Origin: Octopus vulgaris
Lineage: Eukaryota
Direction of reading: 5' to 3'
Length of the DNA stretch: 64,000 nucleotides
NCBI GenBank assembly: GCA_951406725.2
Contig: OX597823.1
Span: forward strand, 91,078,001-91,142,000
Part shown: positions 29,593 through 49,730 of the stretch, piece after piece
Numbering within the stretch: position 1 is the stretch's first letter
How the letters are laid out: every line of letters begins with the position of its first letter
Notes under the pieces: model-generated
Database searches by the model: none
Seen by the model: only the letters and a program-made list of their open reading frames with translations
Told to the model about the DNA's origin: nothing
Program-made: the position numbers and the translations under genes

Positions 29593-29649
29593 GGATCCCC
29601 AGACTAGATCTAGTTTCACCTGTACTGTAGGTATCATCAGTGAGACCCC
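29593..29649 (-). ncRNA. Type I hammerhead ribozyme motif, near canonical
   Basis: Minus strand: UCUCA-CUGAUGA-U-ACCU(ACAGUAC)AGGU-GAAA-CUAGAUCUAG-UC|UGGGG; all three stems pair; GUC site at 29604-29602. Confidence 0.75.
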
Positions 29650-43884: not shown

Positions 43885-44460
43885 TGATGATTTCATTTAT
43901 TTGCCACAAGAGTGAAAGATGAGGGGGACAATACAGAAACAGAGAAAGTGTTGGGGTTTACATATAATAATGAAAGAGGTGACGTATTCATAGCAATAAT
44001 AATAATAATAACAATAATAGACAACAAGAAGAGCTTGATGCGATTTGTAATGGATTGTTTTTCTAAAAGTTTGAACAATATTTCAAGAAATTGTCTGTCT
44101 TCTTCAGGTCCAAAACTTAAAGTGAAAAAAACCTGCAGAAATACAGAAATTCTAAACATAAACGAAGAGGGAACTGTCAGAATTTCTAAACAGTCCAGTT
44201 GTTATTGTTTATCTTTTTTATAAATTAATAATAATGATAAACTTTTCTACTCTTGGCACAAGGCCTGAAATTTTTTGAGTGGGGATGGGGCAGTCGCTTA
44301 AACTGATCCCAGTATGCAACTGGTACTTAATTTTTTGAACCCGAAAGGATGAAAGGCAAAGTTAATCTCGGCAGAATTTGAACTCAGAACATAAAGCTGG
44401 AAGAAAAACTGCTAAGAATTTAACCTGGCATGCTAATGATTCGGCCAGCTTGTAACCTTG
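43885..44460 (-). repeat. Composite of SINE B, unique spacer and retro-type tail; duplicated at 48160-48685
   Basis: 43890-44360 is highly similar to 48160-48685 in the same orientation. Confidence 0.88.
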
Positions 44461-46820: not shown

Positions 46821-46852
<32 letters not shown>

Positions 46853-46857
<5 letters not shown>

Positions 46858-47439
46858 GAAAGAAGGTTTGAAAATGCAATTTAAAAGATGTTTATTTACT
46901 TTACCGGTTTCACTCTTTGGAAAAAGATTGTCAAAAGTAACATGAAGAAGTTTGGTTGCGTTAATTATTGGTTGTTACAAATTGCTACATTACATATATA
47001 CAGTCTTTGGTAACAGGGACATGTTAAGGACATAAAAAAGTTCAACAAGTTCCTTAAAATATTGGGCACAAAAGATTACATAAATAATCGTTCTCAAGGA
47101 CATATGTAAGATAGTTTCCAGAAGGAATTGATATTGGTATTGTATCTGTATATTCAATACCAATATCAATTCCTTCTGGAAACTATCTTAAGTATGTCCT
47201 TGAGAACGATTATTTAATCTTTTGTGCCCAATATTTTAAGGAACTTGTTGAACTTTTATGTCCTTAACATGTCCCTGTTACCAAAGACTATATATATGTA
47301 ATGTAGCAATTTGCAACAACCAATAATTAATGCAAACAAACTTCTACATGTTACTTTTGACAATCTTTTTACAAAGAGTGAAACCGGTAAAGTAAATAAA
47401 CATCTTTTAAATTGCATTTTCAAACCTTCTTTTGTATAT
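46853..47439. repeat. ~590-bp near-perfect palindrome (~290-bp arms, loop 47143-47154) with an HHR-like motif in each arm
   Basis: The arms are reverse complements; UUACUU-UUGACAA-UCUUU..AAAGA-GU-GAAA-CCGG-UA-AAGUAA at 47351-47395 (+) and 46896-46940 (-). Confidence 0.92.
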
Positions 47440-47741
47440 AATTCCACTCGTGCGGTACCCCACAACTCCACTTTGTTATATATATATATATATATATATA
47501 TATCTCAGATCCTTTATCTTTTACTTGTTTCAGTCATTAGACTGCGGCCATGCTGGGGGACCACCTTGAAGAATTTTATTCAAATGAATTGATCCTTGCA
47601 CTTGTTTATTTTTTAAAGATTGTTTGTTTTTTTATATGAATAAATGTACTATATACACTTATAAGTATAGGTATGCATAAAAACATATATACATGCTGTT
47701 CTATCAGTATTTAAGCATTGAAATCCATATTTTTCTAATTG

Positions 47742-47796
<55 letters not shown>

Positions 47797-47802
47797 AGTA
47801 TA

Positions 47803-48086
47803 TAAATTAGTGTACATTTAAAGACAAAGAGGCGAGCCTTAACAGGTCGTCTTACATACTAGAAAGAACAGTCAAAAAGTCCAAACCACAGTTCAGAGCA
47901 ATTTCGAAGGGAATGAAAAATAAAAACATTTACCATGTTTTACAGCTGGACCTTACGTTTCGAACTTCAGTTAGCAAATAAAATAATTTGCAAGGTGAAG
48001 TTCTCATCAGCAGATATGCCAAAACATTAACATATAAATTAGAGACCAAATAACGCGTGTCTCATCCTTATATATTATAAGTTTTC

Positions 48087-48268: not shown

Positions 48269-48339
<71 letters not shown>

Positions 48340-49143
48340 TAATAGACAACAAGGAGAGTTTGATGTGATTTGTAATGGATTGTCTTTCTAAAAGTTTGAA
48401 CAATATTTCAAGAAATTGTCTGTCTTCTTCAGGTCCAAAACTTAAAGTGAAAAAAACCTGCAGAAATACAGAAATTCTAAACATAAACGAAGAGGGAACT
48501 GTCAAATTTCTAAACAGTCCAGTTGTTATTGTTTATCCTTTTTATAAATCAATAACAATGATAAACTTTTCTACTCTTGGCACAAGGCCTGAAATTTTTG
48601 GAGAAGGGGTGAGGCAGGCGCTTAGACTGACCACAGTACGCAACTGGTACTTAATTTTTCGACCCCGAAAGAATGAAAGGCAAAGTGCAGTTTCAATCAA
48701 CAGCAAATAAAAATTCCGATTAAACTTCAGAAATTGCTAAAATCATTTTTTAAAATTAATATAGGGCAGGAAAAATTATAGAAATTTTTATCTACTATTG
48801 GCCTAGCATGTATACAATTTATATGTTAATGTTTTGGCATACCCGCTGATGAGAAGTTCGCCTTGCAAATTATTTTATTTGTTAATTGAAGTTCGAAACA
48901 TAAGGTCCGGCTGTAAAACATGGTAAATGTTTTTATTATTTAATCCCTTTGAAATTGCTCTGAACTGTGGTTTGGACATTTTGACTATTCTTTCTAGTAT
49001 GTTAGGCAACCTGTTAAGGCTCGCCTCTTTGTGTTTAAATGTACACTAATTTTTATATGCAAAAATATGTCTATTGACTTTGTATACATGCTAGGCAACT
49101 GGTAGAAAAAAATTCTATAGTTTTTCCTACCCTATATTAATTT
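47803..49143. mobile_element. Inverted pair of ~235-bp HHR-bearing elements (47803-48040 - and 48818-49052 +); the second is flanked by its own ~65-bp inverted repeats
   Basis: CUGAUGA-GAACUUCA...UGAAGUUC-GAAA-CG-UA at 47950-48015 (-); diverged copy at 48841-48906 (+); 48755-48820 is the reverse complement of 49079-49143. Confidence 0.82.
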
Positions 49144-49169: not shown

Positions 49170-49730
49170 ATCATATCCTATCCTATCCTACACCCCCTCC
49201 CACACATACCCCACTTCTACCCCCATCCTCTGCCTACCCACAAACCCCAACTCTACCCCAACCCCCAGCTGAACCCACACCCCACCCGTGCTTTCCCCAC
49301 TCTCGACTCCCCCACCTCCCCACAACATCACACCACATCACACTACACCATACAACATTACACATCACATCACAACACACCACCCATACACCCATCCCCA
49401 CATCTTCACACCTACACATACATACATGCACACGTCCAGACCACCAGCCCTCTTTCACACGCACATACATACTCTCTTATACACACACGCACCCTTGTGT
49501 TGGGGGCACCTTTGTGTTTGACCCTTCTGTCCGGCACTAGTCGCCATGATAGATCGTTAGCCACTACACACATTTTTTTCTCTCCTTGTTTTTTCTGTGT
49601 CCCTTTCTGTAGAAGAGCGTAGGCTCGAAATGTAAAAAACTTTTTCTATTCATGAGCATTATACTAATACATCTGTTTGTTTTGTACACCACCTGTCATC
49701 GTCTTTTGTTTTTTCGTAAACTCTCCCTAT
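49170..49730 (+). mobile_element. Penelope-like terminal repeat (family G) with an HHR-like motif at 49603-49638
   Basis: CUUU-CUGUAGA-A-GAGC(GUAG)GCUC-GAAA-UG-UA-AAAA. Confidence 0.7.

Follow-up and report, generated by a model that had tools for sequence, protein, structure and literature searches.

A palindrome in the Octopus vulgaris genome is an ordinary inverted remnant of a Penelope-like retrotransposon with an already published U3-A8 hammerhead core

The 64,000-nucleotide stretch of Octopus vulgaris DNA analysed here (the window) contains a long palindrome, and both of its arms carry a hammerhead-like motif with UUGACAA in the place of the usual CUGANGA core. An earlier note, made from the letters alone, suggested a functional variant core in which C3U is compensated by G8A. 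The locus thus raises the question of what the palindrome is, whether U3-A8 is the core of a whole family or a local accident, and whether such a motif would still cut. We believe that the palindrome is a head-to-head pair of remnants of a Penelope-like element (PLE), and that each arm carries a type I hammerhead with a family-wide U3-A8 pair and a likely U10.1-U11.1 mismatch. Intact elements are predicted to undergo likely slow self-cleavage as dimers, and the copy at the locus is predicted to be inert. The probability of this reading as a whole is approximately 0.85. The features are listed below with their positions in the window.

46822..46856, no strand: (TA)n target microsatellite, left flank, read from the sequence; family copies end in (TA)n
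46857..47157, minus strand: left copy, a 5'-truncated 3' end of a Neptune-type element without tail; it matches the family 3' end, and family sequence reads up to 47157
46896..46940, minus strand: hammerhead motif of the left (mirror) copy, with the U3-A8 core at 46934-46928 and a predicted cut between 46902 and 46901
47143..47157, no strand: junction, made of a 12-base unpaired spacer (47143-47154) and a 3-base microhomology, CAA (47155-47157), common to both copies
47155..47439, plus strand: right copy, a 5'-truncated 3' end of the same Neptune-type element; it matches family copies
47351..47395, plus strand: hammerhead motif of the right copy, with stem I TTACTT (47351-47356) and AAGTAA (47390-47395)
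47357-47363, plus strand: core of the right copy, TTGACAA, U3 to A9
47364 to 47379, plus strand: U10.1 (47364), stem II (47365-47369 and 47374-47378) and U11.1 (47379) of the right copy
47380-47383, plus strand: GAAA of the right copy, G12 to A15.1
47383-47388, plus strand: palindromic stem III of the right copy, ACCGGT
47389, plus strand: A17 of the right copy, with the cleavage triplet GUA and a predicted cut at 47389/47390
47440..47477, plus strand: 3' tail of about 38 bases, an optional feature typical of Penelope-like elements, found here only at the right end; some family copies have the tail and others do not
47478..47503, no strand: (TA)n target microsatellite, right flank, read from the sequence

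The sequence from 46857 to 47439 is a near-perfect inverted repeat between two (TA)n tracts. The right arm (47155-47435) is 94.8% identical to the left arm over 287 columns. The predicted fold of the palindrome RNA is one hairpin with a 12-base loop (-435 kcal/mol, z -41), and 0/20 shuffles folded as well. The 590-bp palindrome described in the earlier note is therefore real. Its limits of 46853..47439 fell short at the right end, where the unit continues through the tail. The caution that the two arms are not independent evidence was justified, because, compared with 12 family copies, they have two derived changes in common, and private changes distinguish them.

A genome search yielded 1,413 candidates at first look; 40 of these were scored and gave 42 matches at 95-100%. 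The family copies have a fixed 3' end that runs into (TA)n, with or without the tail, and their 5' ends vary. Upstream of the copies lies a microsatellite-rich 3' UTR and then, in the translations, a GIY-YIG endonuclease behind a C-X4-C-X2-C linker; the Neptune and Nematis clades are distinguished by a zinc-finger linker, CX2-5CxxC, ahead of the endonuclease (Craig et al. 2021, PMC8557442). At one locus (L099), the 3' end of the window's GUA subfamily stands about 2.1 kb behind a gene for reverse transcriptase and endonuclease (RT-EN), with GIY-YIG at E 4.4e-5. Young copies with open frames of 776 aa were many among the 150 scored protein matches (RVT_1 E 6e-8). Another copy (L135) has the full layout of motif and tail, upstream ORF, RT-endonuclease ORF, UTR, motif, tail and (TA)n, and the intact copies have a tandem pLTR structure. 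In the parent copies the RT is followed by a C-terminal GIY-YIG, as in Neptune and Nematis; neither domain lies within the window itself. PLEs are described as forming partial tandems and inverted truncated copies, carrying a 30-40 base tail and inserting in (TA)n (PMC8557442), and all of these traits were found here; the optional nature of the 3' tail is also described (PMC8557442, PMC11167929). One homologue (83% identity) carries the name Octopus bimaculoides. The arms are two head-to-head, 5'-truncated 3' ends of a Neptune-type PLE in (TA)n, with membership of the family and the link from RT through zinc finger to GIY-YIG both seen directly; Neptune and Nematis are not separated here by reference sequences, and the protein tree held no named reference elements.

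In L135, the RT ORF and the ORF of about 446 aa upstream of it overlap at a heptamer, TTTTTTA (L135:2611-2617), which has the pattern of a -1 frameshift site. No strong stem was found after this heptamer when the sequence was folded (-6.5 kcal/mol). A frameshifted ORF1 is mentioned for some PLEs (PMC8557442). The Penelope-type endonuclease fragment adjoining copy L005 was rejected as the parent, being a different, older element. Penelope-like RT-endonuclease sequences also occur in records labelled as bacterial genomes or symbionts (L395, L396; P0016, P0034, P0043, P0080), and these are likely host DNA in the assemblies.

The motif letters given in the earlier note (stem I, UUGACAA, GAAA, ACCGGU and GUA) are present on both arms. 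So is the invariant core of the type I hammerhead (U4, G5, A6, A9, G12, A13, A14 and the A15.1-U16.1 pair), which is unchanged in 12/12 aligned homologues. At the locus, positions 3 and 8 form a Watson-Crick pair (U-A) and position 17 is an unpaired H (A). Stem I has 6 bp and stem II is a weak 5 bp, and changes in these stems are compensated in homologues. The palindromic stem III forms an ACCGGU duplex of -10.3 kcal/mol. The strict minimal hammerhead consensus (CUGANGAH with G10.1-C11.1; Cervera and De la Pena 2014) is departed from in UUGACAA and in U-U, so that the motif is filed as a variant. Searches that require CUGANGA would miss it, as the earlier note had expected. A search of the whole window against Rfam gave no hammerhead among the best 150 of 251 matches at E<=1, and those listed were microsatellite-driven miRNA only.

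The register of stem II was read differently from the earlier note, which had paired UCUUU with AAAGA and counted two extra nucleotides (GU) before G12. The letters are as described, and what looks like an insertion is better explained by a U10.1-U11.1 mismatch ahead of stem II. In the favoured register, this mismatch is followed by C-G, U-A, U.G, U-A and U-A. An older subfamily with a GUC site forms 1 pair in the first register and 5-6 in the U-U register, and the first register was rejected as the ancestral one. The GUC subfamily has no G where that register needs it, and a U stands on each side of a G-C-rich stem II in 10/13 outside relatives. Both observations suggest that the U10.1-U11.1 layout is a trait of the element lineage. 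In the window's subfamily, the first register is locally 0.9 kcal/mol more stable and would compete, and stem II in the U-U register is very weak (-0.2 kcal/mol).

Exact whole-genome patterns (n = 1,901) gave U3-A8 in 1,882 matches, U3.G8 in 12, C3-A8 in 7 and C3-G8 in 0, with 0 in the reversed controls; these patterns fix C7 and parts of stem II and so miss decayed copies, and the counts are copies of a family, not independent events. The U3-A8 core was intact in 103/110 parsed copies that had not been chosen by the core pattern. The motif was present in 19/20 fetched regions with intact genes (U3-A8 in 18, U3.G8 in 1). Position 17 was A, U or C in 154/157 parsed copies and G in 3 (5/162 were not parsed). 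Across subfamilies, the changes sit in loop II, in a still-pairing position of stem II and in position 17, and the core is unchanged. Contigs from 4 sequencing runs, which as assemblies are blind to RNA ends and expression level, covered the motif of the young parent, and none of the listed variants fell at positions 3 or 8. The earlier note had asked for the genomic copies to be collected; they indicate that U3/A8 is the family consensus, with the intact young copies in agreement, and a CUGACGA consensus mutated at this locus only, which that note had named as its refutation, was not observed.

The pair at positions 3 and 8 was then followed into relatives. In a sister family (57% protein identity), the core is UUGAAAA (N7 = A, no CpG) with a canonical G10.1-C11.1 stem II in 11/11 loci, and all 11 have their own different, complementary stem I. 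In other families, U3-A8 is accompanied by A or U at position 7, and the core of one subfamily is U3.G8. When a 64%-identical homologue was searched against the genome, the matches were mainly to the same family, and one sister family was also found. A genome pattern with C at 11.1 and an ACCGGU stem III gave 6,319 matches (control 89), of which 5,769 were U3-A8 (control 20) and 232 were U3.G8 (control 12). A pattern for C3-G8 that left 11.1 free and had a slightly tighter spacer matched 325 times (control 40). For ACCGGU-type hammerheads of the octopus genome, this amounts to about 7,650 pattern matches with U3-A8 versus 325 with C3-G8, where matches, some of them double-counted, are not events.

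Related elements in metagenome and genome contigs comprised 79 loci, 38 of which reach the gene end and 35 of which have at least 80 bases behind it. A strict scan with positions 3 and 8 left free matched 13/35, and 13/13 were C3-G8 (shuffles gave 0.005 matches per replicate); about ten of the 22 loci without a match show the motif by eye and were missed by the stem III rule. A wider scan of all 79 loci gave 17 matches (C-G 12, U-A 4, A-U 1, unpaired 0). Among 12 aligned homologues, the pair was C-G in 7, U-A in 5 and unpaired in 0. Their covariation score was 0.60, against 0.17 when shuffled and <=0.17 when slid; the score refers to the whole structure, and the 12 rows are hand-picked and related, with only two stem II pairs in register and one row off by 6 bases and lacking the 5' side of stem I. 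A protein tree of 26 rows places the 7 rows with U3 from the octopus genome in a single clade (100/100), nested in a group (93/97) where the remaining 14 rows are C3-G8, the core labels of 5 of these 14 being read by eye. Covariation of U3/A8 with C3/G8, the other check proposed in the earlier note, is borne out by the relatives, the alignment and the tree. Judged from these sequences, a single swap from C3-G8 to U3-A8 likely took place on the stem of the octopus genome's clade.

Several other cores were observed. L324, on a separate branch, has a U3-A8-like motif and was considered as an independent swap; it was rejected because its stem I has only 2 pairs. A metagenome contig (L391) carries a PLE-associated motif with A3-U8, the third Watson-Crick option, beside U3-A8 motifs. 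A 359-base tandem repeat (L206-L212, L218, L224-L232) has a canonical C3-G8 hammerhead with an ACCGGU stem III and resembles an animal retrozyme; its scattered homologues (L273, L307, L308) have U3-A8. A young subfamily of a related Neptune-type family (L277-L306; about 200 matches, linked to RT-EN genes) combines a U3.G8 wobble with a stem II of 2 pairs and an irregular 17/1.1 junction.

Where an intact element is a tandem, two motifs would join by their self-complementary ACCGGU to build stem III, and this dimer would cut after H17. PLE hammerheads are reported to cleave slowly and as dimers (PMC4209133; PMC6765202). We lean towards slow cleavage by the family motif, as a prediction held with less assurance than the reading as a whole. 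In the predicted folds, stem I of the isolated right arm formed with a probability of 0.05, and the monomer misfolds. By secondary-structure energies only, the dimer minimum of the family is about 7 kcal/mol below the double-hammerhead fold, versus 2-3 kcal/mol in the sister family and in one relative (L333).

The copy at the locus is likely inert, because it is truncated and has gathered private changes. The two arms face outward from their common 5' junction, and a transcript of either strand therefore runs through the antisense arm first. Such read-through RNA would form a hairpin of about 285 pairs, with the motif hidden inside it. In the predicted fold of the full palindrome RNA, for both strands, the pair probability of stems I and II was 0.00 and the core was unpaired with a probability of 0.00. 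Both motifs are thus likely buried in the palindrome hairpin.

A possible, though rather doubtful, alternative is that the motif descends from a hammerhead and no longer cuts anywhere in the family, being kept as the 3' end that the RT recognises or simply hitchhiking. The weak stem II and the competing fold are consistent with this. The youngest intact subfamily has a GUU site, an A-A mismatch in stem I and a 4-pair stem I, and the U3.G8 subfamily of the related family still multiplied, reaching about 200 copies; together, these data suggest that selection on catalysis may be weak. Across subfamilies, conservation of the 45 bases downstream of the motif is similar to that of the core, and hammerhead mutants of an anole element insert normally in vitro, so that the mutations do not block insertion there (PMC11167929). 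Against loss of cutting, the changes between subfamilies spare the core and keep to loop II, one position in stem II where pairing persists (U with A or G) and position 17 (A, C or U). Furthermore, families whose proteins differ by 43% retain U3-A8, and the changes in their stems I and II are compensated. Slow cleavage in intact elements remains the reading we prefer.

The formation of the palindrome can be pictured from its junction and ends. The left copy runs to 47157 and the right copy begins at 47155, so that they overlap by the three bases CAA. The endonuclease of the element would nick the TA tract, and two cDNAs would start at two reverse-transcription start sites, one with the tail and one without. 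They would stop 15 bases apart and then join at the CAA microhomology, as this one junction suggests. Two start sites are reported in vitro for a PLE (PMC11167929), which fits a tail on one side only. Head-to-head pairs are common in the family (11/30, 3/30 and 9/30 loci in three sets, with overlapping loci not merged). A long near-perfect inverted repeat in TA with such common pairing might also be read as a foldback DNA transposon (MITE) or a hairpin-RNA gene with an incidental hammerhead likeness. This origin is refuted and very improbable: the inner ends of the copies vary while the 3' end is fixed, most family copies are single, the tail stands at one end only, the same end stands behind RT-EN genes, and inverted truncated copies are a described trait of PLEs (PMC8557442). 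A MITE would be a fixed-length unit with terminal inverted repeats and no RT link, whereas variable 5' truncation, a one-sided tail and an RT-EN link were found here.

The least probable alternative, that the core is a canonical CUGACGA mutated locally by CpG decay of G8 and a chance C3U, could draw on the CpG that C7-G8 would form and on the 359-base repeat, which has CUGACGA and decayed-looking homologues with UUGACAA or UUGAUAA, but it is already refuted for the locus by the 0/1,901 family matches with C3-G8 and the U3-A8 of intact young copies. The caveat in the earlier note that G8A could be CpG decay is thus excluded at the locus. Such decay cannot explain U3, since C3 lies outside any CpG, nor A8, which in the sister families stands beside A7 or U7 with no CpG. 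A8 might still have had an ancient CpG origin in the ancestor.

Other hammerhead-like motifs were observed in the window. Positions 46302-46278 (minus strand) and 49607-49631 (plus strand) belong to a repeat family with the minimal-hammerhead layout and a core that is mostly CUG-U-N-GA. In the loci fetched for this family, U replaces the conserved A6 in 14/23 counted and CUGACGA occurs in 6; the two window copies form an inverted pair, and many further loci exist in the same genome. These repeats may represent another variant of the core, or a family in decay. A direct repeat (44000-44362 and 48325-48686) has a canonical-core hammerhead-like motif in each copy on the minus strand (44113, 48438) and is probably the end of another PLE family. 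A 259-base inverted repeat (47782-48040 and 48816-49074) holds an apparent hammerhead remnant without stem II. Two further canonical CUGAUGA hammerhead-like motifs lie at 29640 and 63895 (minus strand).

Searches that accept only CUGANGA would miss most ACCGGU-type hammerheads of the octopus genome. Young, intact elements offer a natural series of cores: outside relatives combine C3-G8 with U-U, the sister family has U3-A8 and G-C, the window's family has U3-A8, U-U and GUA, GUC or GUU, and a third family has U3.G8. This series makes the need of PLEs for hammerhead cleavage directly testable. A bolder and improbable reading is that U3-A8 became the ruling core of ACCGGU-type retrotransposon hammerheads in the octopus genome after one ancient swap, and that the window's family stacks U3-A8, U-U and, in its youngest intact copies, GUU while still multiplying. 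The motif may then persist as a slow switch that proteins assist, or as an ACCGGU pairing handle that brings two templates to one target and yields head-to-head insertions. The pairing handle is weakened by Naiad elements, which form inverted insertions without canonical hammerheads (PMC8557442).

The core itself has been described before. U3-A8 was found in nature and is compensatory and active in vitro, and U10.1-U11.1, also found in nature, is tolerated better than any other mismatch at 10.1/11.1 (Perreault et al. 2011, PMC3088659). About 1,300 minimal hammerheads with U3-A8 were reported in PLEs of Schistosoma (Cervera and De la Pena 2014, PMC4209133). The proposal of a functional variant core thus stands for a compensatory, family-wide U3-A8 and fails for novelty, which the reports of 2011 (nature) and 2014 (PLEs) had anticipated. 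A literature search on C3U/G8A and positions 3 and 8 returned nothing beyond these reports, and for U10.1-U11.1 only Perreault et al. 2011. Judged by titles and the opening of abstracts, reports on octopus hammerhead ribozymes included none on this motif; Lunse et al. 2017 and Nelson and Uhlenbeck 2008 may cover the combination or the host. The main text of a 2026 preprint on animal retrozymes makes no mention of octopus or molluscs.

Both core departures of the octopus family thus appear in Perreault et al. 2011 (PMC3088659), in a section that does not place the two in one RNA or in a retrotransposon. In the supplementary alignment of PMC4209133, as far as it is legible, a U-flanked stem II goes with C3-G8 (Hydra, D. 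willistoni) and U3-A8 with other stems; the two were not found together in this alignment, which has no octopus row. The Cercyon PLEs of Schistosoma mansoni (PMC4209133) are similar in their type I motif at the 3' end or pLTR, in U3-A8 and in a palindromic stem III that implies dimers. They also have over a thousand mostly single truncated copies, with some opposite-strand pairs 100-700 bp apart. Unlike Cercyon, the octopus family is a Neptune-type element with a 6-base stem III, ACCGGU, and its stem II is flanked by U-U, whereas Cercyon has a 5' bulge and G10.1-C11.1. With the Neptune and Nematis PLEs described in PMC8557442, the octopus family has in common the RT, the CX2-5CxxC linker, the C-terminal GIY-YIG, pLTR tandems, an inverted truncated copy, the 30-40 base tail, (TA)n targets and a hammerhead near the 3' end. 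It differs from that description in an upstream ORF of about 446 aa that overlaps the RT frame at TTTTTTA and in a 2-kb microsatellite-rich 3' UTR. Overall, the U3-A8 hammerhead core has already been published, and the octopus locus is an ordinary inverted PLE remnant.
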